From positions 17,261 to 81,260 of IMG/VR virus record IMGVR_UViG_2932604667_000002: a stretch of DNA of 64,000 nt; one strand, written 5' to 3'. The translations under genes and the position numbers were made by a program. Under the pieces are notes generated by a model. That model did no database searches and was not told where the DNA came from. It saw only the letters and a list, made by a program, of their open reading frames with translations. Positions 26,685-62,042 of the stretch are shown piece after piece. The DNA comes from a virus (taxonomy: Duplodnaviria; Heunggongvirae; Uroviricota; Caudoviricetes). Each line of letters starts with the position of its first letter. The first letter of the stretch is position 1.

Positions 26685-26702
26685 CGTGGACCTCCTTGTT
26701 GT

Positions 26703-29368: not shown

Positions 29369-29382
29369 GCTCGCGATCGGGG

Positions 29383-29402
29383 GTGGTTAAGGTCGCGCCC
29401 TG
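29383..29402 (-). promoter_or_regulatory. second motif class GGTTAAGGTCGCGCCCTG upstream of queC
   Basis: 18/19 identical to copy at 30972. Confidence 0.4.
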
Positions 29403-40439: not shown

Positions 40440-40660
40440 TGTTTCCGCAGGTCGCCTCAAACCTGTAGGGGTTCCTGTCGGGTCACAGGTAGAAGCCCTG
40501 GTAGGTGGTTCGAATGGACTTCCCGTCGTGGCTGCAGAAGGTGATCCGGTAGTCGATCCGGCCGTCGATCCCCTCGGGGACCCATAGGGAGTCCAGTCGC
40601 GGATCCGGAGGCGTTCCTGTCGCCGGACCTGTAGGAGGACCGTCCTGTAGGACGAAAGGG
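40440..40660. repeat. CCTGTAGG / GTTCCTGTCG repeat cluster upstream of parA
   Basis: 4 copies of CCTGTAGG (one inverted as CACAGGTAG), 2 of GGTTCCTGTCG; at strand-switch point. Confidence 0.5.
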
Positions 40661-40702
40661 CTGACGGTCGTCCAGTGGGCGGGAAGTCAGAGCGGGAGCC
40701 CG

Positions 40703-40720
40703 TGTCCGCCACCACGCGAG
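40703..40720 (+). promoter_or_regulatory. promoter core in + orientation at strand switch (candidate par-operon promoter)
   Basis: CTTAAATACCGGTCGCGAC on + strand. Confidence 0.35.
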
Positions 40721-40899
40721 GACTTAAATACCGGTCGCGACACGCCGACCCCGGAGCGGGCACCCGAGACGTGATCCTGGTAGGAAAGTGCCGCAATACC
40801 AAGAACATCAGGAGTCACGTCAACAGGAAGCTGATCCCTCCTCTCCGCGACGCGACCCCCTGACCATCCCCTCCCCCTGTCACACCGCGAGGAGACGAA

Positions 40900-41916
40900 G
40901 TGCGCACCACCCCAGCCAACGGGTTGACGACGCAGCAAATCCTGCAGATGATCCGGCCGCGACTCAGGCGAGTCATCATCGTCCTGAACAACAAGGGCGG
41001 TGCGGGAAAGACGACCACCGTCGCGAATTTTGCCTGCACGGTGGCAGCAGCGCTGAAGAAGAGCGGCTCGAAGAAACGAATCCTGGCTATGGACCTTGAC
41101 CCGCAGGGCAACCTGGGGCTCGACCTCGGCTACCAGGGAAGCGAGGGTGACGACAAGGGGGCGTCGATCCTCCAGGTCATCGACGGCGTCGGGAATCTGA
41201 ACGTGATCCGGGACGTACGGCCCAACCTCGACGTGATCCCTGGTGGCCGGTTGCTCAAGCCCATCGCCATTCGGATGTATGCGGCCGCGCAGGCCGACCC
41301 GCGTCGTGAGGTACGGCTGGCGCTCGCGCAGGCCATCGCTGAGATCGCCGGCGACTACGAGTGGATCATCATCGACTGCCCGCCCAACGTCGCGGAGCTT
41401 CAGGACCTGGCCGCGATCATCGGCCGCTACGTCCTGATCCCGGTCACCTTCGACGAGGGTTCGATTCAGGGCATGCAGGGTGTCGGCGAGGTCTTCGATA
41501 AGGCGGCCGACCTCAACGACGAGCTCATTCCGCTGGCGGCCCTGCTGTTCGGCTTCGACCGGCAGAACAACTTCCGGAAAATTCGGGACGAAAGCGGAGA
41601 AGTCGTCGGGGTCAGGGAGATCGGACTCCTGGCCAGCACCCGCGCCGAGGTTCAGTCGCTGCTCGCCGACCTCGAAATTCCAGTCCTGGAGACGGTGGTG
41701 ACGCGCGCGGTCAACGTCGCCAAGCACTGCCGCAAGCGCGGGCTGAGCTATGCCGAGCTCGCTGACGCCACGGCGTCGGAGAACTGGCGCGAGGTGGCCA
41801 AGCAGAGCGGCATCGCGAACATCTCCGCGGACTCCGCCGAGGTGTCGGCCTATGAGATGGAGCAGGTCGCGGCAGAGGTGATCCGGCTCGTCATGAAGCA
41901 GGAGGCAGCGGCATGA
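40900..41916 (+). CDS. parA: ParA/Soj-family partition ATPase (GTG start)
   Basis: deviant Walker A NNKGGAGKTT; GAGGAGACGAA SD. Confidence 0.85.
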   Translation: MRTTPANGLTTQQILQMIRPRLRRVIIVLNNKGGAGKTTTVANFACTVAAALKKSGSKKRILAMDLDPQGNLGLDLGYQGSEGDDKGASILQVIDGVGNLNVIRDVRPNLDVIPGGRLLKPIAIRMYAAAQADPRREVRLALAQAIAEIAGDYEWIIIDCPPNVAELQDLAAIIGRYVLIPVTFDEGSIQGMQGVGEVFDKAADLNDELIPLAALLFGFDRQNNFRKIRDESGEVVGVREIGLLASTRAEVQSLLADLEIPVLETVVTRAVNVAKHCRKRGLSYAELADATASENWREVAKQSGIANISADSAEVSAYEMEQVAAEVIRLVMKQEAAA

Positions 41917-42749
41917 CGAACCTTCTCGGGCACGAGGCACCGAAGCCGAATCTGGGCGGGTTGGGGCGTCGGCGTCGTACGGGTGCGCTGGACAACCTCG
42001 TCGGGGACACCACCACCGAGACACCGGAGGCACCCGCAGAGGTTCCCGCCGCCACCGTGGATGCGCCCGCTGTGCCTGTAGAGCCGCCCGCGCCTGCCAC
42101 TCTGGAGGGCCAGGAGGAGCCGCCGACGGAGTCGGAGGCATCCCCGGCCGATCAGGCCCCTACAGCGCCCCTGGAGCCCGCTGAGGCCCCTGTAGCCGTT
42201 GAGAGCCAGGAGGAGCCGGAGGAGCAGGAGACGGCCGCGCAGGCGGCCCCTGAAGCGCCTCAGGACGCGGAGCAGCCGCCCACGTCGAAGAAGCCGGAGC
42301 GGGAGAAGCCGAAGAAGGCGGCCACCGCGCGCAAGCCCGCCCCCCGGCAGGCCAGGCCCGCGCCGGTCGCGGCCGCGCTGCCCACCAAGGGTCGGCAGAT
42401 CAACGTCTACATCACGCCCGAGGCGTACGCCCTGGCCGAGCGTGACGGCCGCCTGTACGCCGAGATCGCGATGGATGCCATCGAATGGGCGCTGGATGAG
42501 GGGATCCTGGGCCACCTTGTCGAGGAGCGGACCAGCCGCACGCGGCCGGCGGGAGGACGCTTCCCGGGGCGCCGACTGGCGCGGTCCCGGCCAGAGGAGG
42601 GCACGTCGCGGGTGCCGTGGCCGACACAGTTCAGCCCGGACCAGCGCGCCGTGCTGGAGGAGATCAAAACCGAGGTCGGTGTCCGGCACCTGTCGGCGCT
42701 CATCGGCGCCGCGGTCGAGGGATACCTCACTGCCGAGGACGACGAGTGA
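41913..42749 (+). CDS. ParA partner / putative centromere-binding protein with long acidic Pro-rich linker
   Basis: ATGA overlap with parA; N-terminal Arg cluster; C-terminal INVYITPEAYALAE possible RHH-like domain; not a classical ParB. Confidence 0.4.
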   Translation: MTNLLGHEAPKPNLGGLGRRRRTGALDNLVGDTTTETPEAPAEVPAATVDAPAVPVEPPAPATLEGQEEPPTESEASPADQAPTAPLEPAEAPVAVESQEEPEEQETAAQAAPEAPQDAEQPPTSKKPEREKPKKAATARKPAPRQARPAPVAAALPTKGRQINVYITPEAYALAERDGRLYAEIAMDAIEWALDEGILGHLVEERTSRTRPAGGRFPGRRLARSRPEEGTSRVPWPTQFSPDQRAVLEEIKTEVGVRHLSALIGAAVEGYLTAEDDE

Positions 42750-42832: not shown

Positions 42833-43609
42833 TCACGCCTCGATGCTCACTATGTGTCCCGGGCCGCCGGCGATGATGCTGTGGCGGACCTCGACGCAGC
42901 GGCCTTCCCCGGTGTAGCTGCGCGCGACGATCTCCGTCACCGGGGTCGCCGGCAGGAGCTGCAACCGCTCGGACTCGGCAGGCCGGGGCATCCGGGAGCT
43001 GATTTCCAGGTCCTGGTGGACGCAGGCGTTCCCGGCATCGGCCAACACCGGGTAGGCGTCCACGTGGGTGACCGACGAGCTCCGGAGCACGGTGCCGTCC
43101 ACGACATCCTCGGGGTAGTAGGCGCGTGTCCACTCGACCGGCGCCCCGTCCGAGCGGCTGCGCAGACACTCGCGGACGAGGATGTGCCCGTCTCCCACGC
43201 CGAGCAGGTTGCCGACGGTGTCGCTCCGGATCGGGGTGTCACCCGGGGGGAGTCCGACGCTGACGTCCTCTGGCCAGGTCGCCCCTGAGTCGGCCATGGC
43301 GGCGATCCATGGATCAGCCAGCGGCACGGCGGGGCGTTTGCGGCCACGCCGGATCAGGCGCCAGGTCATCGCGGCGTAGCGCCGCACCCAGGACCCGACG
43401 CGCGGTTCGGATGCGATGAGCCCTTCGCCAGCCAGTTGGGCGTAGGCCCGGCCGACGGTGATGCGGGTTGTGCCGCGGTCTGCGGCCATCTGCACCTCGC
43501 TGGGCAACGGGTCTCCTGGCGCGAGCTCACCACTGGCGATGGCCGCGCGGAGCTCGGCGGCCAGGGCGCGGTAGGACACGCCGCCTGTGCGCTCAGCGCT
43601 CACGAACAC
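42833..43609 (-). CDS. GntR/HutC-family transcriptional regulator (KorA-like)
   Basis: GntR HTH plus UTRA-type C-domain; GTG with AAGGAGG SD; divergent from transfer operon. Confidence 0.8.
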   Translation of the reverse strand: MFVSAERTGGVSYRALAAELRAAIASGELAPGDPLPSEVQMAADRGTTRITVGRAYAQLAGEGLIASEPRVGSWVRRYAAMTWRLIRRGRKRPAVPLADPWIAAMADSGATWPEDVSVGLPPGDTPIRSDTVGNLLGVGDGHILVRECLRSRSDGAPVEWTRAYYPEDVVDGTVLRSSSVTHVDAYPVLADAGNACVHQDLEISSRMPRPAESERLQLLPATPVTEIVARSYTGEGRCVEVRHSIIAGGPGHIVSIEA

Positions 43610-43648: not shown

Positions 43649-43681
43649 TTGACATTGCGGCAAGCATAGGCTGCATAATCT
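43649..43681 (+). promoter_or_regulatory. sigma70-like promoter of transfer operon
   Basis: TTGACA-17-TGCATAAT in AT-richer divergent region. Confidence 0.45.
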
Positions 43682-43682
43682 G

Positions 43683-43690
43683 GTGTACAC
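43683..43690. promoter_or_regulatory. candidate HutC/GntR operator GTGTACAC
   Basis: perfect 8-bp palindrome matching GT-N-TA-N-AC HutC consensus, between korA-like gene and tra promoter. Confidence 0.45.
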
Positions 43691-43734
43691 AAGGTATGGT
43701 AGTGAGTATGTTCGAAACCAGGAAGCACGAGACG

Positions 43735-46236: not shown

Positions 46237-48357
46237 ATGAGCACGAACCGCTCCACCCCCCGGCCGCCCGTGGCCTCCACGGCGCCGCAGACCGGCGCAC
46301 GTCTTGGGGCTCCAACCGCACCGCCGGCGAACCTGCCGGCGGTGCCGCCCGGCCACACCCTGGTTCCCAAGGAGCCAGCCGGGCCGACGGTCGGCGGCGA
46401 GCTCCAGCGTGCGGCCAAGAAGGTCGGCTACCGGATTCGTTACGGTGCCGCCCCTCTCATGACGATGGGCGGCCTGTGGGGCGCCACCGCCTGGGCGACC
46501 ACGCAGGCCGGTATGGGGCCGGTCACGGTCGGCGCGGGCACGGTCGCCCTGGCCGCCGCGCCGCTCATCAAGAAGAAGCTCCGCCTGGCCGTCCGCAAGG
46601 CGCTGTGCACGATGCGGCGCAAGGTCTGGGCAGGTGGCGCGCTGACTGCGGCCACCACCTGGACGATGGCGGCCGCGGAGGTCGGCGTCGGGTTCGACAC
46701 GCTGATGCCGGCGGCGCTGGTCGTCGGCGGGTCGGTGATCTCGATCCCGTTCTGGTGGAGGTACCGCAACCAGATCCCCGCGGCTCCGCTCAAGGCCGTC
46801 GAACCTCCGCCGGCGCAGCCCGCGCTGCCTGCTCCCGAGCCGCCGCGTGAGCTGCCGCCTGCGCCGCATGAGGACCAGATCGAGTGGGACGAGTTCGTCG
46901 GCTGCTCTGGCGGCGCCCTCCCCGGGACGTGCCTGCTGGACCGTGAGGAGCTGTTCGACCTGGACGGCAACCCCAACGGGTCCGCCTGGACGATCAAGCT
47001 GGTGCGGGGCAAGCAGACCACGATGTCGGCCATCGCGCAGAGCGAGAACATCCAGTCGGCCTACGACACGACGGGCGGCCTGCTGTACGTCGAGCGGCAC
47101 CCGTCGGGCAAGCAGTCGCTGGCTCGGCTGGTCAAGATGACGCGCAACCCGCTGTCGACCGAGTCGATCATCTACAAGGGTCCGCGGCTCGACCTCAAGA
47201 CCGGCATCGCGCCGATCTCGCTGTACCCCGACGGGTCCGGATACGCCTACTACCGGTTCTGGGAGCCCAAGTCTGGAAGCTGCCACACCCTGGTGTCGGG
47301 CACCACCGGCGCCGGCAAGTCCGGCGTGCTGACGTGGATCATCACGGAGGCCGCCGAGTCCGGTGTGGTCGCGACCTGGCTGCTGGACCCGCAGCACGGC
47401 ATCTCGGTGCCCGCGTGGGTCAAGCACGTCGACCGGGCCGCCCTGGAGATGGAGGAGATCAAGGCGTACCTGTACGCGGCGGCCGCCGTTCTGGAGGCGC
47501 GCGGGCGCTACCAGAAGACGCTGCGCTGGTACGACGCGGAGATCGACGAGTGGTGCGAGGGCAAGGGCTTCTTCGAGCCCACGCCGGAGTACCCGCTGCT
47601 CATGGTCGTCATCGACGAGGCCCACAAGGTCCTCCTCGACCAGGAGTGCGTGAACCTGGTGGCCTACCTCGCCAAGGAAGGCCGCAAGGTCGGCATCAAG
47701 ATCGTGCTTGCGACGCAGGTGCCGTCGGTGACCGAGCTCGGTGGCAACGTCGTCATCCGCGACCAGGTCGCCAGCGGAAACATCATCGTCCTTCGGACCG
47801 CCAACAGGTTGTCCGGACAGATGGCGTACTCCGGCTCGCTGCCGATCGACCCGGGCGCGATCCCGAAGGTGTTCGAGGGGACCACCATCCCCACCAAGGG
47901 ACTGGGGTATGTCCTGTCCGCGACCGAGCGGCCGGTGCCCTCGCGGGTGCTGTACGTGCGGGACGCGGTCAAGCGGGCCAGGGCGGTGGACGTCAAGCGG
48001 CTGGACGCGATGAGCGAGCAGGCCGCCGCGGCGATCCTCGAGCAGATGCTGGGCGCTCCGCGGGCCGCTGGTGCTGCCCCTGGCCAGCCCGTGGCGCCGG
48101 TGGTGCCGCTGCATGTGGTGCCGGTCCAGGGTGGCGACGACACCCGGGCCACTGCCAAGCACGCGGTCCTGGACTACATGCGACGGGTCGGCAGGCCCGT
48201 GCCGGCCGGTGAGTTCAACGACAACCTCGAATACAGCCCGGCGCAGATCCACAAGGCCCTGAACGCACTGAAGGACACGAAGCAGATCCGGCAGGGCGGA
48301 TGGGGTCAGCCGTACGAACTCGCCGACTCCGTGGCCGGGGTCGGCGCCGCCCAGTGA
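46237..48357 (+). CDS. traB: FtsK/SpoIIIE-family DNA translocase (TraB-like)
   Basis: TM N-domain; Walker A GTTGAGKSGV; Walker B LMVVIDEAHK. Confidence 0.8.
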   Translation: MSTNRSTPRPPVASTAPQTGARLGAPTAPPANLPAVPPGHTLVPKEPAGPTVGGELQRAAKKVGYRIRYGAAPLMTMGGLWGATAWATTQAGMGPVTVGAGTVALAAAPLIKKKLRLAVRKALCTMRRKVWAGGALTAATTWTMAAAEVGVGFDTLMPAALVVGGSVISIPFWWRYRNQIPAAPLKAVEPPPAQPALPAPEPPRELPPAPHEDQIEWDEFVGCSGGALPGTCLLDREELFDLDGNPNGSAWTIKLVRGKQTTMSAIAQSENIQSAYDTTGGLLYVERHPSGKQSLARLVKMTRNPLSTESIIYKGPRLDLKTGIAPISLYPDGSGYAYYRFWEPKSGSCHTLVSGTTGAGKSGVLTWIITEAAESGVVATWLLDPQHGISVPAWVKHVDRAALEMEEIKAYLYAAAAVLEARGRYQKTLRWYDAEIDEWCEGKGFFEPTPEYPLLMVVIDEAHKVLLDQECVNLVAYLAKEGRKVGIKIVLATQVPSVTELGGNVVIRDQVASGNIIVLRTANRLSGQMAYSGSLPIDPGAIPKVFEGTTIPTKGLGYVLSATERPVPSRVLYVRDAVKRARAVDVKRLDAMSEQAAAAILEQMLGAPRAAGAAPGQPVAPVVPLHVVPVQGGDDTRATAKHAVLDYMRRVGRPVPAGEFNDNLEYSPAQIHKALNALKDTKQIRQGGWGQPYELADSVAGVGAAQ

Positions 48358-48537
48358 TTACGGGCCGTGGTCAATCTCTCGCGAGATATCTCCACGGCCC
48401 CCACTCCCTCCACTTGGAGTCTCAGGCGGTCGTACGCGCGGGCGCGACGCGCACGCGCGCGCGAAGTTAGCACAAGAGATCGAGACATTGAGACATTCAC
48501 GACCACTACAGCGAGTAACGGAAGGACTGTGATCGAA

Positions 48538-49620
48538 ATGGCTAGGAAGCAGAGCAAAAGGACCGCGGTGATCCTGCTTGTCGGAGCAGGTATCGGCACG
48601 ATCACCTTGAACGTCTGGCACGCCGTGGAGAAGCTGACTGCCCTGCACAAGGCGGGCGAGACACTGGAGGCCAAGGACTACCTGGGCATTGCCGCGTTGG
48701 CGCTGATCGCTGGCGTTTTGCCGGTCTTCCTGGCCGGATTCATGTCGGAGCTGGCCGACTCGCACCCGAAGGGGCGAGGCAAGGCCGTGTGGCTCGTCAT
48801 GGGCATGGCGATGGCCCTGTCCATCCAGGCCCAGGCCGAGATGCTTGAGCCAATCTTCGGGGAGTTGGTGGAGGGCAAGCCACTGCTCAGCCTGCGGTGG
48901 CTCTTCCCACTCATGTGCGACATCGCCGTGATGAAGTCTCTTCAGGTGCTCCTGGCTCCCGACGACGACACGGCGGAGAACGCCGCCAGCGGGGTCACCA
49001 CCCCGGCTCTGGTGACGTACGTCAACCGCCCCGACGGCCTCACCGGGGGGACCGCTCCTGCCGCCGGGGGAGCCTCACTCACCCCTCACCCGGGCGGCTT
49101 ACCCGGCTCACCGGGGACCCTCACCGGGCAGGGATCCGCCCCTCACCGGAACCTCACCGACCCTCACCCGGTGAGCCCTTCCAGTGAGGCACCGCAGAAC
49201 CCCGCCGCCCCCTCACCGAACACCCCTCACCCGCCCCTCACTGGGGAGGGAAACCAGGGCGGCGGTGAGGCCCCGACCGGCCCCGCACCCAAGCCCCAGG
49301 CGGAAGTTCCGGCCCCCCGGCAGCCGAAGAAGCCCGCGACCAGAAAGCCCCAGAGCAAGAAGGTCCGGAGCGCCACGGAGACGGACCCCGACCGGATCGA
49401 CATCATGGCCCTGCACGGCCCTGACCTGGTCCGACAGATCAACGCCGACCTGGCCACGGGCAAGCTGGAGCGCCTCTCCGGAGCGCAGATCCGCATGCGT
49501 TACGGCCCCCTCGGCAGCGACAACGCCTCAATCGTCTTGGCCCGATACAACGAGGCGAACGAGCGCCTGGCCGCCCCCAGTGAGGACGTCACCGGCGACC
49601 TCACCGAGCGGGTCGGGTGA
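48538..49620 (+). CDS. membrane protein with Pro/His-rich repetitive C-terminal half (Spd-like)
   Basis: GGAAGGA SD; C-terminal half is encoded by the CCTCACCG repeat array. Confidence 0.45.
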   Translation: MARKQSKRTAVILLVGAGIGTITLNVWHAVEKLTALHKAGETLEAKDYLGIAALALIAGVLPVFLAGFMSELADSHPKGRGKAVWLVMGMAMALSIQAQAEMLEPIFGELVEGKPLLSLRWLFPLMCDIAVMKSLQVLLAPDDDTAENAASGVTTPALVTYVNRPDGLTGGTAPAAGGASLTPHPGGLPGSPGTLTGQGSAPHRNLTDPHPVSPSSEAPQNPAAPSPNTPHPPLTGEGNQGGGEAPTGPAPKPQAEVPAPRQPKKPATRKPQSKKVRSATETDPDRIDIMALHGPDLVRQINADLATGKLERLSGAQIRMRYGPLGSDNASIVLARYNEANERLAAPSEDVTGDLTERVG

Positions 49621-49930
49621 CCCTCACCCACCCCCTCACCGAACCTCACCGGTGACCCTCACCCGAGCCTCACCGGTGAGGTGCCCAGTGAGCCTCTACC
49701 ACCCTCACCGGTGAGGCTCGCCGGGTGCCTCACCGAGACACCGCCCCAAGACCAAACGCCCTCACCGAGCAGCATCAGCGGACCTCACCCAGCGCCTGCC
49801 GGGACCACCCCCGCGAGCCGCTCCAGTGAGCACCCTCGCCCCTCACCGAGTGACGGCCCGACGGCGGCCGCCCTCACCGCGAAACCTCACCGACTCGACA
49901 TCACCGGAGGAGACCCCAGTGACTCTCACC
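49060..49930. repeat. array of >20 direct and inverted CCTCACCG octamers (clt-like)
   Basis: CCTCACCG / CGGTGAGG repeated through 3' half of 48538 gene, intergenic region and start of next gene; directly downstream of traB. Confidence 0.55.
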
Positions 49931-50623
49931 ACCACGCCCACCCCGCTCACCGCCGCGGCGCTCGGCGCGCTCAGCGGCGACGGCAACATCCTCGTCGCCG
50001 GGCCGCCCCAGTCGGGCAAGACCTCGCTCCTGGCGGCGCTGGTCGAGTCCTACCGCCAGGAGGCGCGCGTGTACGTGCTCGGCGCCTTCAAGGGGTTCGA
50101 CACCTACCGCGCCGCGGTCGACGGCCGCCGCGTGGGCCTCGGCGGTTTCGACGACAAGAACCTCTCGCAGTGGCTCGACGACCCCACGGAGGCGCTGGGT
50201 CCCTACGACGGCATCGGCGAGGTCATCAAGAGCCGGATGCTCTACGTCCACCTCTGCCACGAGCCCATCGTCGTCGTCTGGGACAACCTCAACGTGTTCC
50301 ACCACGGTGGCGACCTCGACAAGCTGGTCGCCCTGTCGCGCCGGATCAACGTCAAGGTGATCGCCGCCATCACCACGCCGATCTCGCCGATGGCGATCTA
50401 CAACACCACGACGGCGCAGATGGCCACCCGGGTCCTCCTCGCGCCGCACCGAGAGAAGGAGCACCGGACGGCCGACCTGTTCCCCTGGTACGAGCTCACG
50501 CACCAGCCGTGCCCGCGGTCGTGGGAGATGCCGCGCACCCCGGGGACGGCGCTCATCACGCCCGACGCCACCGGCGAGGCCCCGCTCCTGTACACCCTCG
50601 CTGGCCCGAAGGGCGCCCACTGA
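49919..50623 (+). CDS. P-loop NTPase (234 aa, GTG)
   Basis: GPPQSGKTS Walker A, VVVWDNL Walker B; GGAGGAG SD. Confidence 0.5.
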   Translation: MTLTTTPTPLTAAALGALSGDGNILVAGPPQSGKTSLLAALVESYRQEARVYVLGAFKGFDTYRAAVDGRRVGLGGFDDKNLSQWLDDPTEALGPYDGIGEVIKSRMLYVHLCHEPIVVVWDNLNVFHHGGDLDKLVALSRRINVKVIAAITTPISPMAIYNTTTAQMATRVLLAPHREKEHRTADLFPWYELTHQPCPRSWEMPRTPGTALITPDATGEAPLLYTLAGPKGAH

Positions 50624-50691
50624 CCCCCGGCCAACCGTCCAGGACCGACCCCGGCGCACGCCGGAACCCCCGTAGAAGGGACAACACCCCG

Positions 50692-50922
50692 ATGTCCGAT
50701 GTCCGAGTGGCGATCGTCTTCGACCCCGACGACGGCCCCGAGCAGACCCTGTACGCCTACCTGCCCCCGAAGGACTTGGACGCGCTGGCGGCCGAGGTCG
50801 GCAAGCCGGAGAGGGCTGAGGAGGTCCTGGTGATCGACGCCGCTCTCCAGCCCAGCGGGCCGTACCTGCAGCGTGTCTTCCGCTGGGGCCGGATCAAGAG
50901 CATCAAGCGCGCCACCTCTTGA
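50692..50922 (+). CDS. hypothetical protein (76 aa)
   Basis: AAGGGA SD. Confidence 0.5.
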   Translation: MSDVRVAIVFDPDDGPEQTLYAYLPPKDLDALAAEVGKPERAEEVLVIDAALQPSGPYLQRVFRWGRIKSIKRATS

Positions 50923-53216: not shown

Positions 53217-53420
53217 GGGGCGGCGCCCGCGAGCCTGGCTCCTCAGCTTGATCACGAGGTCATGCACTGCCCGTTCAAGGGCGTAGACATCCGGGTGCCG
53301 GTCTTCGCCGACCCACTCGGGGAGCTGCAGGAAGTTCGCCATCGCGTCCTCGTTGGACTGGGCCTCAACCAGCCGCGCCACGTACAGGTATGCCGCGCGC
53401 TTGGCCTGCTGCTGGTTCAC
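53208..53420 (-). CDS. hypothetical protein (70 aa, GTG)
   Basis: AAGGAAG SD; GTGA overlap. Confidence 0.5.
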   Translation of the reverse strand: MNQQQAKRAAYLYVARLVEAQSNEDAMANFLQLPEWVGEDRHPDVYALERAVHDLVIKLRSQARGRRPAT

Positions 53421-54304
53421 CCCGCGTCTTCCTTCTGAAGGTTGGCGGGGATCCGCTCGTGCCGGGTGGCGTACGCCGGGCCGCCGGCAGCGGCGGATCC
53501 GGCGTCGAGCACGGGCGCTGTCCTGGCTCCTGCCTTCGCGAGCCGGGCGGAGGCCGACCGGGTCACGAGCGGCGCCTTGGCGAACACCACTCCGCCGGGG
53601 GCGCGCTTGAAGTACTGGCCAGGGTGCTCGAGGTCATGGATGTCGACCTTCTCGGCGTCCGCGCCGAGGACCATGGTGGCAGTCAACTGGGACCGGGTGC
53701 GGAGCAGGTAGCGCGCGGTGAACTTCTCCCCGGTTGCGCCCCACGTGCGGGGGATGGCGACGGTCCCGTAGCGGGTGGCGAAGACGAGCGACACCGCGGC
53801 CTCCTGTCCGCGGTGGACGACTGAGCCGAGGTGGGCCGCGAGCTCGGCGCGGTCGGAGTGGACGGCGAGCGCGGCGGCCTCCGGCAGGACGTAGACGATC
53901 GCGGGCCTGTCGCAGGACGGGGTGAGCTTGTCCCGGCGGGCGAGGGTGTTGAGTCGGTGCTCGATGATATTGGTCAGTGCGGCCACCTGCCGGGCGGCCT
54001 CGTCGATGGTCGTTGCCGCCCAGTCGAGGCGGGGCATCCACGGCTGGAGGTGCCAGCCGTGGTGCAGCGGGTCGGCGCCCCAGATCATGGTGTCGGCGCA
54101 CCGGTGCAGGTTGGCGAGGGCGACGTAGACCATGTTGGTCAGGCCGCCGCCGCTTTCGGCGTCCATGAACCAGTGCTGGTGTAGCAGCGGCTGCTCATCG
54201 CGGGTGCCATCGTTGCGGGTGCCCGTGAGGAGCGGCTGGGTGATGCTGTGCGGCAGGTGCTGCTCGATGTCGCCGCCGAACAGGATCGCGCCGGTCGGGT
54301 TCAC
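53417..54304 (-). CDS. hypothetical protein (295 aa)
   Basis: GTGA overlap; replication-module context. Confidence 0.5.
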   Translation of the reverse strand: MNPTGAILFGGDIEQHLPHSITQPLLTGTRNDGTRDEQPLLHQHWFMDAESGGGLTNMVYVALANLHRCADTMIWGADPLHHGWHLQPWMPRLDWAATTIDEAARQVAALTNIIEHRLNTLARRDKLTPSCDRPAIVYVLPEAAALAVHSDRAELAAHLGSVVHRGQEAAVSLVFATRYGTVAIPRTWGATGEKFTARYLLRTRSQLTATMVLGADAEKVDIHDLEHPGQYFKRAPGGVVFAKAPLVTRSASARLAKAGARTAPVLDAGSAAAGGPAYATRHERIPANLQKEDAG

Positions 54305-54660
54305 TTCGCGTCCTCCTCCGACTCGGTGGCGTCCTCGATCTCCGCCAAGACCTTGCGGCCGCAGTCGAAGCGGGTTGCGTCCACCAGGGTGGCGCCGGGG
54401 ATGGAAGCCAGGGCCACCCAGCCCTCGGCCAGGGTGCGAAGCCGGGCGAGAGCGGCCTCGGCGAAGGCCAGGCGCTCATCGCGGGTCGGCTGGAGCGGGG
54501 CGACGGTCTCGCCCATCTCGACCCGGTGCGCGCGGTGGGCGGTCCGCTGCTTCCGGATGGTCTGGGTGCGGTCGGCCTTCCACTTCCCGCACATGCAGAC
54601 CAGACCGGAGCCGTCGCGCCCGTAGAAGCGGCGGGCGAGGTGCTGGCGCGTATTGGTCAT
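54301..54660 (-). CDS. hypothetical protein (119 aa)
   Basis: CMCGKW; ORF in operon. Confidence 0.5.
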   Translation of the reverse strand: MTNTRQHLARRFYGRDGSGLVCMCGKWKADRTQTIRKQRTAHRAHRVEMGETVAPLQPTRDERLAFAEAALARLRTLAEGWVALASIPGATLVDATRFDCGRKVLAEIEDATESEEDAK

Positions 54661-54680
54661 CTGGGATGTCTCCTTGGTGG

Positions 54681-54839
54681 TCAGCGTGAGGAGTCCGCGA
54701 TGGCGCCGCGTCGGGCGTCCCCGCGGCTGCGGCGCCGGCGGGGTCGGGAGTCGTGCCGTCCGGCGGCGTTGCTGCGGCGCAGCTCGGCGAGCCGGGTACC
54801 GGTCGTCTCACGGTGTGCCTGGGTGGTGCGGCGGGCCAT
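54681..54839 (-). CDS. small arginine-rich basic protein (52 aa; ARM-like)
   Basis: first gene after cassette 54858; AGGAGG SD; MARRTTQAHRETTGTRLAELRR...RPRRRRSRGDARRG. Confidence 0.45.
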   Translation of the reverse strand: MARRTTQAHRETTGTRLAELRRSNAAGRHDSRPRRRRSRGDARRGAIADSSR

Positions 54840-54857
54840 GGTGGTCCTCCTGCGATG

Positions 54858-54912
54858 GTCGGGTCGCTCTCCCAACGAACCTGATAGTACCGGTATTTAG
54901 GGCCGGTGGCGC
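54858..54912 (-). promoter_or_regulatory. promoter/leader-hairpin cassette
   Basis: core GTACCGGTATTTAG; upstream of ARM-like gene. Confidence 0.6.
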
Positions 54913-54974
54913 CCCCTGGCGGGGGTTCTTGTCGTTGAGGTTTTCCGGTGGGCAGGGGCAGGCCCTGGCCGCGG

Positions 54975-55742
54975 TCACCAGCCCGCGCGGGTCCGCCGGT
55001 CCGGGCCGGTGATTTGCACGACGGTGATCTGCTGGCTGATCCGGGAGATGATCCGCTCGTCGTACAGCCGCTCGAGTTCGGCCGGGCCGAGGTTCGTCGT
55101 GATGATCAGCCGCTTGCCCCGTCCGAGCCGGGGGGAGAACAGGTCGCAGAGCTCGCGCTGGACGAACTCGGTGGCGGCTCCGCGCTCAAGGTCGCGGTTG
55201 GCGCCCAGGTCGTCTACGAGCAGGTCCTGGACTCGCGCCGCGCCGTCGCGGACCTTCCACGCCGGTTCTGGTCCGCCGTCGGGCAGGAGCGCGTCCAGGT
55301 AGGACTTCTCCTTCCACGCCTTCACGGTGCGGCCCTGCTCGGCGAAGTGCCTGAGCAGGGCGAACGCCACGTGCGTCTTGCCGACGCCCGTGGCTCCGGA
55401 CAGCAGCAGCGTGCGGCCGTTCGGGTCCTCGGCCCACGCCCGGATCCGGGCGACGTGCTGGTGGCGCGGGTCGAGGGCATCCAGCGACGCCGTGGAGTAG
55501 TCCTCGTACGGCCAGGACGCCAGCAGCTTCTCCCAGCCCTGCGACGACGTCCGCGCCTGGAGCGCTGACACCTCGGCCCGTACCTGCTCGCGGTCCGGCT
55601 CGTCGTCGACCGCGTGCAGGTGCCCGCCACGTTCCCGGGTGATCCGGTCGCTCATCTCGCGTATCCGGGCCAGGCCCGAGGTCGTGCGCCCCTCGGCGCC
55701 CGGCTGCTCCCCGAGGACGTCACCGATGGTCATGTCACTCAC
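54975..55742 (-). CDS. DnaC/IstB-like AAA+ helicase loader (GTG)
   Basis: LLLSGATGVGKTHVAFAL Walker A, LLVDDLG Walker B; GTGA overlap with initiator gene. Confidence 0.7.
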   Translation of the reverse strand: MSDMTIGDVLGEQPGAEGRTTSGLARIREMSDRITRERGGHLHAVDDEPDREQVRAEVSALQARTSSQGWEKLLASWPYEDYSTASLDALDPRHQHVARIRAWAEDPNGRTLLLSGATGVGKTHVAFALLRHFAEQGRTVKAWKEKSYLDALLPDGGPEPAWKVRDGAARVQDLLVDDLGANRDLERGAATEFVQRELCDLFSPRLGRGKRLIITTNLGPAELERLYDERIISRISQQITVVQITGPDRRTRAGW

Positions 55743-57415
55743 TGCGCATCTCCTGCAACGCTGGGCCAGTCAGCCCACAGGTCGTCGTTCTCGGTTTCGT
55801 CGGAGGGTCCGCCCCAGTCGGGCGCGGACCCCTGGGAGCTGCCGGCGTGCTTGGCCGCCCACGCGGCCCAGTCGCCGCCCGAGCTCTGCTTCGCCGACCC
55901 GGCGGTGTCGGCCTCGCCAGGTGCATCGGCGCCGCGCTCGGCCGCCCACGCATCCCACGCCGCCGACGTCGACCCGTCGTGCCAGCCCTGGTTCGTGTAG
56001 GCCGTGCGCTGGGTCTGGGCCTGCCCGCCCAGCGCGCCGTGCAGCGCCCGCATGAGCAGCCACTGCGGCGGGACCAGCTCGGCCCGCCCGGCTGCGGCGA
56101 TGCTCTGGAGCGCCTCCCGCACCGACACCGGGGTGGCCGGGTTCTCGGCGGCCATCATCGGCGCCAGCAGGCCCTCGACCAGGGTGTCGTGGGTGCTGGT
56201 GCGGTCCGGGATCGGGCCGACCTTCGCGCACATGTCCAGCCACCAGGTCGCCAGCCGCTCAGCGGCGACGAGGGTCTCCTGCGGGGCCGCGTCAGCGAGC
56301 CGGGCCGGGCGTCGGCCGGCGTAGCGCTCGGCCTTGGTCTGCTCGCTCAGCATCCAGTTTTCCCAGGTCTGGCCCCACAGGGACTTCTTGCCGTCCTTCG
56401 TGTCGGCCTTGTCCCACCAGAAATTGCAGAACCGCATGTGCTCACGGTCGAGGTTCAGCGCCGGGGCGTGCTCGGCAGCCCAGGCCCGCATCTCGTCCAG
56501 GAGCGGGAAGTTCTCCGGCAGCGGGATGCGCGGCCGCCGCTGGCGGGACTTCCGGGAGGACTTCCCGCCCTCCCCGCCGCCGGTTGGCGCTTTGGCATCG
56601 CCAACAGCGTCCGCGTCCCGGTCCGCTTGGTCGTCGTCGATGTCGCGATGCCCAGACTCCAACCCGGGGACGAGGGTCAGGTGGGGCTGGCCGGGCTCCT
56701 CGTGTGCGCGCGCATGCGCGCCCACTACACCCCGAAGGGGTGTAGTGGGGGTACCGAAGTGAGAGGTACTGAAGGGGTCTTGTGGAGTGGACCCTTCCGC
56801 GTCCTCCAGTGGACCCTTTCCTTCGGATGGGTCTGCTGCGCTGGACCCTTCGGGCGAGATTGGGTCTGCTGAGTTGGACCCATCTTCCTGTGATGGGTCT
56901 GCTTGGCTGGACCCTTCCTGATGGGTCTGCTTGGCTGGACCCTTCTCGGATGGGTCTGCTGTAGTGGACTCTTCCGAGGTCTTGCCGTCGACCCCGTCGA
57001 TGTAGTTTTTGACGTCCTCGGCCGTCGGGATCGCGGGCACGCCGGCGAACCACTCGGCCCCCGGGCAGATGTCGCGGATGCCCTTGGCGATCTTCTGGGG
57101 GTCGGGGGCGTACAGGGTGGCGTCCCCGGCGGCCGGGAACGCCTTGTAGACCGTGCGGTGGCCGCGGTAGGCCCGTTCGGTCACCAGGACGTAGCCCATG
57201 GACTGCAGGTCGGTGAGGATGGCGGCGGCGCGGGCCTTCTTGACTCCGGCCCAGGCGCGGATGGCGGCCTGGCCCGGGAGCCCGAGTCGGGTCTCGTGGT
57301 CCGCGCTGTCGCAGATCTTCATGAGGGCGAGCTTGTGGGCGGGCGTGAAGTTGATTCCGCTCGGGTGCGGGCCGATGGGCAGGTACCCGGCGACGATCAT
57401 CAGGTGGGCGCTCAT
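55739..57415 (-). CDS. replication initiator (558 aa) with internal iterons
   Basis: N-terminal wHTH-like domain; central acidic repeat region encoded by tandem DNA repeats 56760-56990; followed by DnaC-like loader (lambda O/P-like layout). Confidence 0.55.
   Translation of the reverse strand: MSAHLMIVAGYLPIGPHPSGINFTPAHKLALMKICDSADHETRLGLPGQAAIRAWAGVKKARAAAILTDLQSMGYVLVTERAYRGHRTVYKAFPAAGDATLYAPDPQKIAKGIRDICPGAEWFAGVPAIPTAEDVKNYIDGVDGKTSEESTTADPSEKGPAKQTHQEGSSQADPSQEDGSNSADPISPEGSSAADPSEGKGPLEDAEGSTPQDPFSTSHFGTPTTPLRGVVGAHARAHEEPGQPHLTLVPGLESGHRDIDDDQADRDADAVGDAKAPTGGGEGGKSSRKSRQRRPRIPLPENFPLLDEMRAWAAEHAPALNLDREHMRFCNFWWDKADTKDGKKSLWGQTWENWMLSEQTKAERYAGRRPARLADAAPQETLVAAERLATWWLDMCAKVGPIPDRTSTHDTLVEGLLAPMMAAENPATPVSVREALQSIAAAGRAELVPPQWLLMRALHGALGGQAQTQRTAYTNQGWHDGSTSAAWDAWAAERGADAPGEADTAGSAKQSSGGDWAAWAAKHAGSSQGSAPDWGGPSDETENDDLWADWPSVAGDAQ
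56760..56990. repeat. about 7 tandem ~27-30-bp iterons inside initiator gene
   Basis: unit TGGACCCTTC-N-GATGGGTCTGCTG; each unit has GGACCC/GGGTCT dyad symmetry. Confidence 0.6.
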
Positions 57416-57827
57416 GAGGCCACCGCCAGCGCGCTGTGTGCACGGCCGGTCACGGCGCGGTGAGATCGGGGGGCGACGAGGAACTGTCGCGACGACACAT
57501 CGGTACCGGTTTGCGTGTCGCGGGTTGCGACCCAGCGCGCAACAGGTACCCTGAAGCCAAGCTTCATCGGGTTACTCGCTTTCCTAGCGATGGAGCGGCT
57601 CGAGAAGGGACCGCTAATCCCCTCGGGCCAGACACGGCGGCTGTTCGCCTTCGCCCGGTTCGCACCCGGGCGCGGACGAGCCGCCGTCGTCGTTTCTATG
57701 GACTTTTCATGGTGCTGCCTCTTCCGAGGCGTGAGGGAACCGTACCGCGCCTGTGGGGACTTTGTATCCCGACACACCGACCTTGGGGGCGTAGATCCGG
57801 TCGCAGTGGGTACCTCGTGACGTCGCA
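57416..57827. other. ~410-bp non-coding, lower-GC region upstream of initiator gene
   Basis: no credible ORF; contains GGTACCGGT, GTTGCG...CGCAAC palindromes and AGCAGGTATTTAGCC core-like box. Confidence 0.35.
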
Positions 57828-58232
57828 TCACACCTCACCGCCGTGCGTCGTGTGGGCTATGAGCAGGTATTTAGCCAAGTTCAGGCGGGCGAGCAGGTCC
57901 TCTTCGCCGGGGCCGGCAAGCGCCAGCGCCTTGTTGACGGCGATCTCGATGTCGGTCGGGTGCTGGCGTAGGTGCCGCCAGCCGTCGCCGTCGCAGTAGC
58001 GGGGGAAGCGGGACACCTCCGCGAGCCACTGCGCCGCCTGGTCCAGCTCCTCCGGCGTCGGCTGCCGGGAGGGGTCGTTGACGTAACCCGCGCTGGTCAG
58101 GGCCTTCAAGAACGCCCACAGGGCCGTGTCGAGGCGCTCCATGACCGGGACCGCCTCCAGGGTGCCGTCCATGAACGCGGTGTGCGCGGCAGCGAACGCC
58201 TCGTCCAGGGCGGGAGTGTGTGCGTCGGTCAT
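57828..58232 (-). CDS. hypothetical protein (134 aa)
   Basis: ATG overlapping exonuclease stop; C-terminal part of the spurious 411-aa ORF in the track. Confidence 0.5.
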   Translation of the reverse strand: MTDAHTPALDEAFAAAHTAFMDGTLEAVPVMERLDTALWAFLKALTSAGYVNDPSRQPTPEELDQAAQWLAEVSRFPRYCDGDGWRHLRQHPTDIEIAVNKALALAGPGEEDLLARLNLAKYLLIAHTTHGGEV

Positions 58233-59572
58233 GCGGCGGCCTCCATGGCGGTCTGCTTGGCGACGCGGACCGGCCGGACTTCGGTCCACACGTCGACTCG
58301 GAAGGGAAGCTCGATCTTGTCGAGCCAGGTCTGGAACTCCCCGCGGAGCGCGGGTGGCGAGGTCTCCCATTGCTGTCGCGCCTTGGCGACGGCGAGGAAG
58401 TAGGCCTTGTGGTCGGGCATCCTGCGGCGCCGCTCGGTGATGACCCACTTGCCGTAGGTGCCGTCGGGCAGTCCGGCGACGAGCGGGGCGGTGGCTTCGT
58501 ACTCGCGGACGGCTTCCTTGCGGTTTTCCTTCCACTCCCAGGTCAACGACGCCGCCCACTCGATCTTGGCGGCGTCGGGGTCTGGGCCGAGGATGGTGTA
58601 GCCCTGGGGGGAGCGGCCGGCGGCCTTGGCGGCGGGGATGTTCCAGCAGTGCGAGCGGAACGGGCACCGGTCGCAGATCGGGTCCCTGTCGGGGCCGCGG
58701 CCGTCGCGGGGCAGGTCGACGCCGAGTTCGATCGCGGCGGACAGCGCCTGGAGCTCGCCGAGGGCGGAGCGGGCGAAGTCCTCGTCGTAGGGCTCGGTGA
58801 AGACCTCGTTGTCGCCGTCCACGCGCGAGATGTAGTCGATCTCGATCCAGTCGACCGGTCGGCCTGTCGCGCGCATCCCGTAGCCGTAGACGGCCGCCTG
58901 CTTCCAGTGCTCGATCCGAGGTCCGTAGATGCCGATGTGCTCCCAGGCGTAGGCGCCGGCGGATTTGCGGTCGCCGACGATGGCGAGGATCTGGTCGTAG
59001 CGGTCGATGTGGCCGATGGCGTCCAGGCCGGGGATCGCAACCGGCAGCTCGTGCTGGACCCACTTGTAGAAGTGGGCGTCAGCGAGACGGCCCAGGTGGT
59101 GGAAGGCGGTGCCGAGGTCGGCGGCGGAGGTGTCGACCGGGTCCCGGACCAGGTCAAGCGGCGGATTGAGCCGGTATTGAACAGCGCGACGGCAGCGGCC
59201 GGAGTCGGAGGGGCGGACGCCCGTGCCGCTGGTCGCCTGCTCGCGCCGGTTGATCTCGTCCAAGTAGCGCTTGACGTCGTCACGGAACCGAGGCCGCGCG
59301 GCGAGCACCTGCTCGGCGAGCTTGTAGGCCGGGTGGGGCGCGTAGCGCTTGCAGCCGGTGTCCTTGTTGCCGCCGCCGCCCTTGGCGCCGGCGTGTTCGG
59401 TCAGGGGAGCCCCGCACATGCAGGGCGTGCCGCCGGGGGTCGGCTGGTACCCGGATTCGATGACGGTTCGGGCCGCGTTGATCGGAAGGCTCATGGGGCC
59501 TCCCACAGACTTTCGGGCATGCGTGTCTCCTGCTCGGCTGCCACCGGATCGCTCGGCCGGTGGTGTCGACAT
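58229..59572 (-). CDS. Cas4/RecB-family (PD-D/ExK) exonuclease (447 aa)
   Basis: C-terminal CDRCPFRSHCW Cys cluster typical of Cas4/RecB nucleases; recT nearby. Confidence 0.55.
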   Translation of the reverse strand: MSTPPAERSGGSRAGDTHARKSVGGPMSLPINAARTVIESGYQPTPGGTPCMCGAPLTEHAGAKGGGGNKDTGCKRYAPHPAYKLAEQVLAARPRFRDDVKRYLDEINRREQATSGTGVRPSDSGRCRRAVQYRLNPPLDLVRDPVDTSAADLGTAFHHLGRLADAHFYKWVQHELPVAIPGLDAIGHIDRYDQILAIVGDRKSAGAYAWEHIGIYGPRIEHWKQAAVYGYGMRATGRPVDWIEIDYISRVDGDNEVFTEPYDEDFARSALGELQALSAAIELGVDLPRDGRGPDRDPICDRCPFRSHCWNIPAAKAAGRSPQGYTILGPDPDAAKIEWAASLTWEWKENRKEAVREYEATAPLVAGLPDGTYGKWVITERRRRMPDHKAYFLAVAKARQQWETSPPALRGEFQTWLDKIELPFRVDVWTEVRPVRVAKQTAMEAAA

Positions 59573-60022
59573 GGGGTGGTGCTCATGGCCCGGACGCTAG
59601 ACCGGACCTGCGGTTACTGTCTGCGCTCACTCGTGTGCGCGCAGGTAGTTACCACGTTGAATCATGGTATCGCCATGACCCGGGCGGGTGGCAAGGCGTA
59701 CCCACGCAGGGAACGGACCTCTGCCTCAAGTGGACAGGGATCGAACATCTCGTAGCCGCGGGCGTAGTCAACCAGTTACCGTTCTTTGCGGAACTCGACA
59801 ACCGTCCAGGGGACTGGGGGGAGGGGGCGGCCAGCATGCTGAGCGTGAACGTCCCACTCCTGCTCACGACGCCCTTTTGGGAGATAGACCTCCGGTTGGC
59901 TGCCCATCGCGCACTCACCTCTGTCTGGGACTTCGCGGCGGACGCCTGGGACACGCTGCGAGGGCGATGCAGAGACCCTCTACGGGGGCACTTATCCCTG
60001 ACCAGCAAATGGCGGCACACCA

Positions 60023-60510
60023 TGACCGGTGACCAACGGGGCACAACCACCCCGCCAGAACAGGATCTCTCGCTGGCACAACGAACTACCCTGGCCCGGC
60101 GACTCGCGGCTCGGGACATCAGCGCTCACATGGCCTACGTGGCCGCACAGGACGCCGATGGTCTCGCCGAGTCGCTGGATCCATGCAAAACGCTGGACGT
60201 CCTCGCCCAGCGGTACCGGACCCTGGCAGTGCTCCACGCGCGGATCGTGAACGGCGCGAGCTGGGCACAGGTCGCCGGACGCCTCGGTATCGAGGCATCG
60301 ACCGCGCGGGCGCTGTATGAGGAACCCGAGAAGCGGTGGCGGCAAGGGGACCCGCGGCCGTGGGCGGTGCAGGCCGCTCGGCTCGCCCTGGCTGCCGCAC
60401 GCGCGGACCTGCCGCCGGCGGACCTGGACATCAACCCCGGCAACGCCGCAGACCTCGCGGCCGAACTCGAAAGGTTCGTGGCCGTCTACCCGTTCGAGGC
60501 GCCCGAGTAG
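60023..60510 (+). CDS. putative HTH regulator (sigma-70 region-4-like), 162 aa
   Basis: LAQRYRTLAVLHARIVNGASWAQVAGRLGIEASTARALYEE; atypical codon usage; longer ORF 59560..60510 possible; sits between exo and recT. Confidence 0.4.
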
Positions 60511-60553
60511 GCGCGCGGCCGACCCCGCCAGGTGGGCCAGCCGCGCGCACGGT

Positions 60554-62003
60554 TCAGGACACGTGTGTGGCGTCCTCAGCGGGGCGACCACACCCCGGAG
60601 CGGCACACTCGGCGCCGTCCTCGCCCTCCACGAACAGGTGCAGCGGTGACCCCTCCGCCTCCGCCTCCGCCTCCGCCGCGACGCGGCCCAGCAGCACCGG
60701 CACCGGAGCGATCAGCATCCGACCGGCCTCCCGGTACGCCTGCGCCTCCTCCGCTCTGCCGGACTTGGCGAGCAGGTCGGCGACTGCGTCCCGCATCGGC
60801 CCGACGATCGCGACCATCTCGGCGGCAGTCGCGTCGTCGAGGTTCTTTCTGAGCTGCCGGACGACGATGTTGCCGTACGGCTTGCCGATCGCCTCAGAGA
60901 TCATGGCGATCTCGTCGCGCATCCACTGGGCCAGCTCATCGGCGGTCGGCGTCTGCTCGCTGGCACCATCCGGCGTCGCGTCCTGCCCGGCCTCCTGGAC
61001 GTCGTCGGGGGCGACCTCCACCGTGACCTCCGCCGTGGTCTCCGTCGTGGTGTCCGGTGCGGGACTCGTGCGGGTCCGCATGCTGGGGACCTGGACGGCC
61101 GTCACCGCCGACCGGTACTTGTCCTGGCGGGCACGGACCCCATCGGCGATCTGCTCGCGGGCGGCCGTCGCGTCGGCCTGCATCATCTCCTCGTTGGTGT
61201 AGATCCCCGACAGCCGCTCCGGGCACGCCTTGCGCAGGACGAGCGCTTCGGCGCACTTCCCGGGCATCAGGGCCTGCCCCTTCTCCCACATCTCCGACAG
61301 CTCCATGGCGATGCTGCCGTCAGGGTTGTAGACCTTCTCCCGGTACCACTTGTCGTTCTTGGTCTGCTTCCACTCGCCCTTGGCGGGGAAGTACGGCGCG
61401 TACATCTTCCAGTTCGCGATTGCAGTGGTGACGGCGTCGTTACCGTAGGGGTCGTAGTGCTCGAGGACGGCCTTGGCCGCGCCCGGGTGGTCGCGGATGT
61501 CGGGCCACTGCTCCCACCAGATGCGCCGCATGACCAGCTCGCCGGTGCGGGGGTCCTCCACGGCCCGCCAGGAGGAGTCGTCGTCGTCGTCCCCGGTCCA
61601 GTAGATCGTTGCGCCGCCCTTGATGCGGCCGGTGTCGTTGGCGAGGATCCGGAAGCCGTCGATGCCGGTCTGAATCGTGAAACTCGCGTTGTCTCCGTCG
61701 CCGCGCTTGATCAGGTAGATCTGCCGCAGGAACGGGTTGAGACCCCTGGACGTGCATGCCTCAATGAACACCTCCATGTGAGGCCACGCCTGGCGGTCCA
61801 TCGGGTCGAAGTTGACGATGCCCTTGAACGCCTCCAGTTGGCGGGCGGTCATGTCGCCTATCCCCTGGTCGCGGCGAAACACCAAGACGCCACCGGAGGC
61901 GGGGGTGAAGGCGACCGCGCTCTCGGTGCGTTCGATGCCTTCGTCGTCGGGGATGGGGGCGTTCGGCTCGCGGGTCTGGACGGGCGATGCGTGATCGGCT
62001 GTC
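60554..62003 (-). CDS. recT: RecT-family single-strand annealing protein
   Basis: EVFIEACTSRGLNPFLRQIYLI...FTIQTGIDGFRILA matches the RecT core; AAAAAGGAGA SD directly after hairpin 62043; track start 62011 is a GTG. Confidence 0.7.
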
Positions 62004-62042
62004 ATGCACACTCTCCTTTTTAGGCCCGGTCGCTCTCCGGGC

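Follow-up and report, generated by a model that had tools for sequence, protein, structure and literature searches.

TraB-type conjugation, in which a single FtsK-like pump moves double-stranded DNA, drives gene flow among actinomycetes, including that of antibiotic gene clusters. How a plasmid, large ones included, is recognized for transfer has to our knowledge been worked out in only a few small Streptomyces plasmids. We analysed a 64,000-nucleotide stretch of DNA (the window), positions 17,261 to 81,260 of IMG/VR virus record IMGVR_UViG_2932604667_000002, which carries a dense array of the octamer CCTCACCG inside a TraB-type transfer module. The genes of the module are ordered as follows: ParA with a coupled gene of 278 amino acids (aa), a divergent GntR/UTRA regulator, small genes and a gene of 405 aa, the TraB-like translocase (706 aa), the array-bearing gene (360 aa), and a P-loop protein (234 aa). 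The array and the genes around it are:

46237..48357, plus strand: TraB-like FtsK-type translocase, 706 aa
48538..49620, plus strand: DUF2637-type protein, 360 aa, with three to four N-terminal membrane helices, a linker and a putative C-terminal helix-turn-helix (HTH)
49038..49270, plus strand: array block A, 6 exact and 13 one-mismatch copies of CCTCACCG, in the linker-coding part of 48538..49620
about 49161-49178: composite palindrome CCCTCACCCGGTGAGCCC, within block A
49599..49892, plus strand: array block B, 12 exact and 16 one-mismatch copies, over the last 22 bases of the coding sequence and the 298-bp spacer
49668..49681: perfect 14-bp palindrome CCTCACCGGTGAGG, two head-to-head octamers sharing CCGG
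49703..49716: second 14-bp copy of the palindrome CCTCACCGGTGAGG
49919..50623, plus strand: P-loop protein, 234 aa (GPPQSGKTS), its ribosome-binding site (RBS) and start codon directly after block B

The window contained 33 exact copies of CCTCACCG where 6.9 ± 2.7 were expected, and none of 100 shuffles reached 33. Between 49038 and 49892 there were 18 exact copies (15 on the plus and 3 on the minus strand), a density of 19.3 per kb inside the array as compared to 0.24 per kb outside it, or about 80-fold. When one mismatch was allowed, 33 copies were found from 49030 to 49960 (27 plus, 6 minus); core counts from 49000 to 49960 were 24 for CCTCACC, 29 for CTCACC and 35 for CTCAC, and the consensus of the listed copies was (A/C)CCTCACCG(A/G). 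No exact copy occurred in the stretch between the blocks that encodes the C-terminal domain (49281-49590). We took as a null set about 80 FtsK-encoding loci, unrelated to this one and many with a high GC content, from a genome-contig scan; most were chromosomal ftsK genes. Their most clustered 7-mer usually occurred 4-9 times per 700 bp, with a maximum of 12; the corresponding value for the window was 16, at a setting of 600 bp.

A preliminary description of this DNA, made from the letters alone, had reported a dense octamer array beside traB in direct and inverted orientation, and the counts bear this out. Its figure of more than 20 copies holds for the 7-mer core and for near-copies but slightly overstates the exact octamer. 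Two details were corrected. The spacer given there as 200 bp is 298 bp long (70.8% G+C), the next gene starting not at 49681 but at the GTG at 49919, with GGAGGAG in front of it; the open reading frame (ORF) 49681-50922 was rejected as the next gene, being Arg-rich and in the wrong frame. The array was also said to run into that next gene, which it barely does, with a single copy at one mismatch or fewer. Counting and phasing of the octamers, proposed there as a check, yielded the totals above and a period of about 11.4 bp in block B.

The array is real, phased and selected as DNA, because its copies use three reading frames and both strands, continue into non-coding DNA and keep a phase of about 11.4 bp. 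Plus-strand copies inside the coding sequence 48538-49620 fall in all three frames (4/2/7), the same word being translated as LT, PHP or SP accordingly; the repetitive translation that the preliminary description saw forced on the overlapping gene is visible as a Pro/His/Leu/Thr-rich stretch. Phasing of block B at 11.4 bp was significant (R=0.82, p about 0.002 against random placement), and no tandem unit of fixed length was found in the array. These properties support a phased array of the protein-binding-site type within the transfer module. Outside the array, in 1-46036, 12 of 13 upstream CCTCACCG copies were on the minus strand, on which nearly all the genes in 1-40000 are encoded; this bias probably reflects Leu-Thr codon usage and not a polar signal.

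Two proteins encoded at the array are candidate readers of it. The 706-aa translocase matched Pfam FtsK_SpoIIIE (E=4e-6) and has N-terminal hydrophobic helices followed by an FtsK/TcpA-like motor. Its AlphaFold2 (AF2) model had a predicted confidence (pLDDT) of 80-90 in the motor and about 80 in a C-terminal winged helix of the order helix-helix-helix-strand-strand; the best Foldseek matches of the model were TcpA and the FtsK motor. The Tra protein of pIJ101 has the same layout, FtsK_SpoIIIE plus a C-terminal MarR_2 domain. The window translocase is a distant TraB relative, scoring 48 bits against the NCBIfam plasmid_TraB model, the cutoff of which is 800 bits. 

The 360-aa protein bears the UniRef name 'DUF2637 domain-containing protein'. 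It did not match Pfam DUF2637 (PF10935) at E<=1, and its N-terminus aligned to the syntenic protein of one related module, L001 (E=6e-6). Against the PF10935 cutoff of 22.8 bits, the proteins of L004 and L010 scored 22.4 and 24.3 and those of L008, L009, L091 and L216 were strong matches. Hydrophobic segments span residues 8-30, 45-74 and 121-140, and a less pronounced segment spans about 83-100; a disordered linker of about 135 aa, rich in P, G, A and T, leads to a small helical C-terminal domain. In several relatives this C-terminal domain matched Sigma70_r4, HTH_11 and MarR_2; a profile built from the C-terminal domains had no match among PDB sequences, and a homologue search with the 360-aa protein returned only itself. 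Identification of DUF2637 with SpdB/SpdB2 was considered and dropped: SpdB of pIJ101 has no DUF2637 match.

Related modules were sought from several directions. The TraB-like protein has only a handful of homologues in the protein database; tblastn with it reached 137 actinomycete plasmids, at identities of 39% or less, and a scan of viral contigs found no relatives. A megablast of 46237-50700 against plasmid and phage collections gave no match. A viral-contig scan for CCTCACCG-N2-5-CCTCACCG gave only chance matches and, in a low-GC phage (L135), a tandem repeat of 12 bp in coding DNA that is unrelated to the array; tblastn with the TraB of L007 found no close relatives beyond the L001/L007 pair. 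Fifteen TraB-like modules were read in all, the window included. An element-specific motif array was present in 10 of the 15, always in or beside a DUF2637-type gene. Those outside the window are:

L001/L002 and L007: GCGGAAC(T/C), 7-8 in-gene copies, plus 11-13 inverted copies in the following spacer, 12-14 or 21-23 bp apart
L003: CCGCAACC, about 30 copies
L004: CGGACCGC, about 22 copies
L008 and L216: GCGGACAA, about 24-30 copies
L091, L215 and L093 (S. rimosus pPZG101): CCGAAACG, at a spacing of exactly 21 bp
CCGAAACG sets flanking the DUF2637 gene in opposite orientations: L093 2793-3120 and 4466-4613; L091 3295-3633 and 4838-5269; L215 3665-4002 and 5201-5369

The layout in L001 and L007 is the same as in the window. 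In the CCGAAACG group, 7-9 copies extend over the promoter, the RBS and the 5' coding region (the first 40 or so codons), and another 2-3, in inverted orientation, are found close to the 3' end; the 21-bp spacing of the 5' set, equal to two helical turns, is conserved in the three plasmids, and the copies at the promoter and RBS suggest autoregulation in this group. Where relatives share a motif, the motif units were conserved and the spacers had diverged, as in the non-coding arrays of L001 and L007 and in the L091 group. In the window, L001 and L007 the DUF2637 gene comes next after traB, and the array begins within it, 0.5-0.7 kb downstream of traB; in L003, L004, L008, L216, L091, L093 and L215, gene and array together lie 2-5 kb upstream of traB. 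Judged from gene order, then, the position of the array appears to follow the DUF2637 gene and not traB.

The preliminary description took the array for a candidate clt, the TraB recognition locus, read directly by the C-terminal winged HTH of TraB. In such a case the translocase would assemble there and pump the plasmid as double-stranded DNA. Streptomyces TraB reads plasmid-specific direct 8-bp clt repeats by helix alpha-3 of this domain (PMC4447253, PMC3583192, PMC4170104), and in pSVH1 the clt repeat is specified by that helix, as quoted in PMC3583192 and PMC4447253. As at the clt/TRS loci of pSVH1, pJV1 and pWTY27, plasmid-specific repeats of 7-9 bp are gathered in direct and inverted copies at one cis locus in an actinomycete TraB (FtsK-like, double-stranded DNA) module, where a multimeric nucleoprotein complex would be expected. 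The replicon with this cluster of short repeats also codes for a TraB-type, FtsK-like translocase that ends in a winged HTH, an architecture shared by the window protein and pIJ101 Tra; the motif of 8-9 bp is element-specific and mostly in one orientation, the array starts 680 bp downstream of traB, and the recognition helices of homologues differ between elements with different motifs.

The relatives, however, dissociate the motif from that helix. The TraB-like proteins of L216, L091 and L215 are 93-95% identical and their recognition regions are identical (IPLSTVSSTLTRAAKK), that of L008 being near-identical; despite this, L216 and L008 carry GCGGACAA and L091 and L215 carry CCGAAACG. Conversely, L093 has a different TraB helix (PNPRVRTALGRMKDD) and yet the same motif, CCGAAACG, as L091, and no CCGAAACG-type array was found in L009 or L217, which have the TraB helix of the L093 type. 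L001 and L007 share a motif though their TraB recognition helices are identical at 8 of 15 positions, with an Arg-to-Tyr change among the differences; their DUF2637 HTH is nearly identical. The motif thus did not co-vary with helix 3 of the TraB winged helix among these relatives. The preliminary description had named the absence of the repeats from elements with the same traB as the observation that would speak against it. A comparable absence was found among the relatives: on the complete plasmid of L091 (NZ_CP108855.1, 197,776 bp), whose helix is of the L216 type, there is no cluster of GCGGACA(A) (GCGGACAA), the maximum being 3 copies per 700 bp. A separate repeat shared at the 3' end of traB was sought in L008, L216, L091 and L215, with nothing convincing found.

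What the motif does accompany is the DUF2637 gene. A C-terminal HTH of the form '...VITDRLSxALGLSVDKKxVARxVRRE' pairs with GCGGACAA, one of the form '...LADIQxEL.V.S..TAS.YRQEAAELL' with CCGAAACG, and one of the form 'INGAELGRAL.VSDRYGR.LL' with GCGGAAC. L091 and L216 are 88-90% identical in DNA from the DUF2637 stop codon through traB, but over the DUF2637 gene and its array they cannot be aligned. Between L091 and L093, an identity of 82% is confined to the array and the DUF2637 gene. A conserved gene of about 90 aa after the DUF2637 gene tracks the backbone, not the motif. In these DNA mosaics the array and the DUF2637 gene have been swapped as a unit against a constant traB backbone; the two thus make up one exchangeable cassette, compatible with more than one TraB backbone. 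At the level of sequence comparison, the arrays are tied to the DUF2637 gene and not to the TraB winged helix.

Further differences from described clt loci are the number of copies, about 33 over 850 bp as compared to 4-9 repeats, the embedding of the array in a membrane-protein gene with which it is exchanged, and the translocase itself, its NCBIfam score lying far under the cutoff. We therefore regard direct reading by TraB as unlikely. Of the proposal that the array is a clt, the module and the kind of element stand and the TraB winged helix as reader is probably wrong; likewise, the gene upstream does have TraB architecture, but its adjacency to the array is not supported as the relevant association.

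Another DNA-binding protein might read the array, either as the centromere of the ParA system or as an operator array for the downstream operon that begins at 49919. Two further features of the module enter here:

40900-42749: ParA and a translationally coupled 278-aa gene, 7.6 kb upstream of the array
42833..43609, minus strand: GntR/UTRA regulator (TraR/KorA-like), diverging from the transfer operon

Plasmid centromeres such as parC and tubC typically consist of repeats iterated at about one helical turn, the ParA gene and its coupled partner lie upstream on the same DNA, block B fills the spacer up to the RBS of the next gene, and several small uncharacterised ORFs lie downstream. Against this, the region upstream of parA has repeats of its own (ACCTGTAGG three times, CCTGGTAGG twice) and the GntR regulator has its own palindrome. 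A partition centromere would be adjacent to, and co-inherited with, its partition NTPase operon; here parA is 7.6 kb away, and the two are unlinked in L004, where parA follows traB and the array is 4.5 kb distant, and in NZ_CP108855.1, where parAB lies about 38 kb from the array. The DUF2637 gene is the only constant companion of the array, the neighbouring gene of about 90 aa being independent of the motif. An iteron-type origin fits no better: no rep gene adjoins the array, the spacer is G+C-rich and half of the array is coding. Another reader of this kind seems to us less probable still than TraB.

That the array has no function as DNA, and is a by-product of a slippage-prone, low-complexity coding region or of a peptide repeat, could appeal to the Pro-rich linker that hosts it and to the in-gene copies of L001, L007 and L008, which are mostly in one frame and could encode AEL or ADN repeats, but it is contradicted by the distribution of the window copies over frames, strands and non-coding DNA (12 exact copies are non-coding or at the very end of the coding sequence, and helically phased), by the lack of a fixed-length unit, by the non-coding arrays of L001 and L007 in which the motif is retained while spacers diverge, and by the exact 21-bp spacing of the L091 group across promoter, RBS and coding DNA, and is very improbable.

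We favour, with a probability of about 0.5, the reading that the array consists of putative cognate sites for the C-terminal HTH of the DUF2637 protein, which would tether plasmid DNA to the membrane beside the pump. We infer that this domain is the reader, that it lies on the cytoplasmic side, and what the complex is for. The protein would be anchored by its N-terminus with the C-terminus in the cytoplasm, assuming four helices and the positive-inside rule at MARKQSKR. Many HTH domains, reaching out on long flexible linkers, would occupy sites that succeed one another at about one helical turn and that are in places palindromic double sites; the period being 11.4 bp and not 10.5, the bound proteins would spiral around the DNA. 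A membrane-tethered nucleoprotein complex would thus form on the plasmid next to the TraB-like pump for double-stranded DNA, and the gene with its sites would be a self-contained module. Placing sites in linker-coding DNA would be cheap, because a disordered linker tolerates almost any sequence. Such a tether would likely bring the plasmid to the membrane or keep it there, so that it can be transferred or spread (as a clt-like element or adaptor) or be stably inherited; it may in addition control the downstream genes.

Several observations weigh against this reading. Only three hydrophobic segments pass a strict threshold, and three helices would put the C-terminus outside the cell. The AF2 single-sequence model of the 360-aa protein, with four N-terminal helices, is of low confidence and leaves the HTH unconfirmed, and the window's own C-terminal domain had no match in Pfam or the PDB. 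No CCTCACCG copy is present at the promoter of the window's DUF2637 gene, unlike the L091 group. Five of the 15 modules had no clear array (L009, L010, L092, L094 and L217), nor did L011, the one closer relative at 39% identity. The dissociation tests were made in relatives whose TraB-like proteins are 32-39% identical to that of the window, and carrying them over to the window is an inferential step. Finally, motif and DUF2637 gene are physically the same DNA, such that their co-inheritance is expected under any hypothesis. Because that co-inheritance is trivial, the positive case is made by the co-location of array and gene, the HTH-like C-terminus and the exclusion of TraB.

Sites carried within the gene of their own binding protein are known from pIJ101, where the sps palindromes bound by SpdA2 lie in the gene that encodes it (PMC4170104). 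Common to both systems are sites in the protein's own coding region (the binding here being predicted), a set of transfer or spread genes, and an imposed peptide motif. The sps site is, in contrast, a 12-bp palindrome in 2-3 copies that is conserved across plasmids, while the sites here are of 8-9 bp, element-specific and present in about 33 copies; SpdA proteins are soluble, of 117-163 aa, with an N-terminal DNA-binding region, while the protein here is membrane-anchored, of 360 aa, with a C-terminal domain. Having neither the conserved 12-bp palindrome nor a small SpdA-family protein, the array is set apart from SpdA2-sps, by the descriptions of that system.

Arrays of many short sites at roughly helical spacing also occur in other systems. 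In parC/ParR and tubC/TubR, such sites are bound side by side by a small HTH, winged HTH or ribbon-helix-helix protein, and in RacA-ram and Noc-NBS, clustered sites attach a region of DNA to the cell envelope. The array here differs from all of these in that no partition NTPase is adjacent, the putative reader is an integral membrane protein, and the sites overlap the reader's own gene.

The replicon can be placed through its translocase, which is 100% identical to Microtetraspora fusca ACFY05_31995, encoded on a 151,757-bp contig; an identical copy is present in a second assembly. The 234-aa P-loop protein downstream of the array matched EccCb and AAA_16 weakly. Three of the large actinomycete plasmids encode a full-length FtsK (alpha, motor and gamma) besides the TraB-like translocase (L001 13892-16357, L007 11182-13794, L008 13752-16235), in L001 and L007 directly downstream of the non-coding motif array. 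The FtsK gamma domain was tried as a reader and rejected: this full FtsK has no counterpart in the window, where the P-loop protein is not detectably homologous to the FtsK of L001 and lacks a gamma domain.

Other short elements lie within the module. The divergent GntR promoter region contains a palindrome, CTGGTGTACACAAG, at 43680-43693. It is similar to the TTTGGTACACAACT repeats of 14 bp to which TraR of pSVH1 binds, as quoted in PMC4447253, and is likely the operator of the GntR regulator. The repeats of the 550-bp region upstream of parA (40461-40784: ACCTGTAGG/TCCTGTAGG three times, CCTGGTAGG twice and TCCGG..GATCCGG three times) are a candidate centromere or operator distinct from CCTCACCG. 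A tandem GAGACATTGAGACATT at 48482-48497, in the relatively AT-rich 180-bp spacer directly upstream of the start of the DUF2637-type gene, may be a promoter or operator element.

Elsewhere the window holds two gene sets on the minus strand. The first, at 18544-30289, looks like a 7-deazaguanine DNA-modification system; the second, at 53417-62011, is a phage-like replication and recombination set:

18544-19413, minus strand: Mom-like protein
19410-20324, minus strand: PAPS-reductase-like protein
20708-21535, minus strand: DpdA (E=6e-94)
21572-22678, minus strand: C5 cytosine methylase
26747-27400, minus strand: GTP cyclohydrolase I
27400-28137, minus strand: radical-SAM QueE-like protein
28655-29368, minus strand: QueC
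29387-30289, minus strand: TGT-like protein
53417-54304, minus strand: second short FtsK-like ATPase (phrog_31069)
54975-55742, minus strand: DnaC/IstB-like loader
58229-59506, minus strand: PD-(D/E)XK nuclease
60554-62011, minus strand: RecT

Outside the module the window carries accessory genes of phage or plasmid type; the window ORFs that were scanned included no gene for a capsid, portal or terminase. TraB-like transfer modules also occur in prophage or phage-plasmid contexts, because on the metagenomic contig L003 (8019-17725) a GntR/DUF2637/TraB-like module adjoins phage tail genes (a tape-measure protein with PhageMin_Tail and a PG-binding protein). In L217, on a linear plasmid of Streptomyces canus, a gene for the RNA-guided endonuclease IscB (10855-12150) is inserted directly after the traB-like gene.

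By this comparison, a striking array of repeats is uncoupled from the TraB winged helix and tied to DUF2637, a family of unknown function, with gene and sites moving as a single cassette. It provides the family with a concrete hypothesis: a membrane tether with its own array of sites. It also cautions against taking every octamer array near traB for a TraB recognition locus. As a tentative extension, about which we remain doubtful, the DUF2637 cassette may be the true clt determinant in actinomycete plasmids and phage-plasmid-like elements, handing the tethered plasmid to a TraB motor that is itself indifferent to sequence. If so, DUF2637 would gain a function and the swapping of cassettes between backbones would be explained: across a widespread class of large actinomycete plasmids, DNA recognition would have been outsourced from the TraB pump to an exchangeable, membrane-anchored tether cassette.

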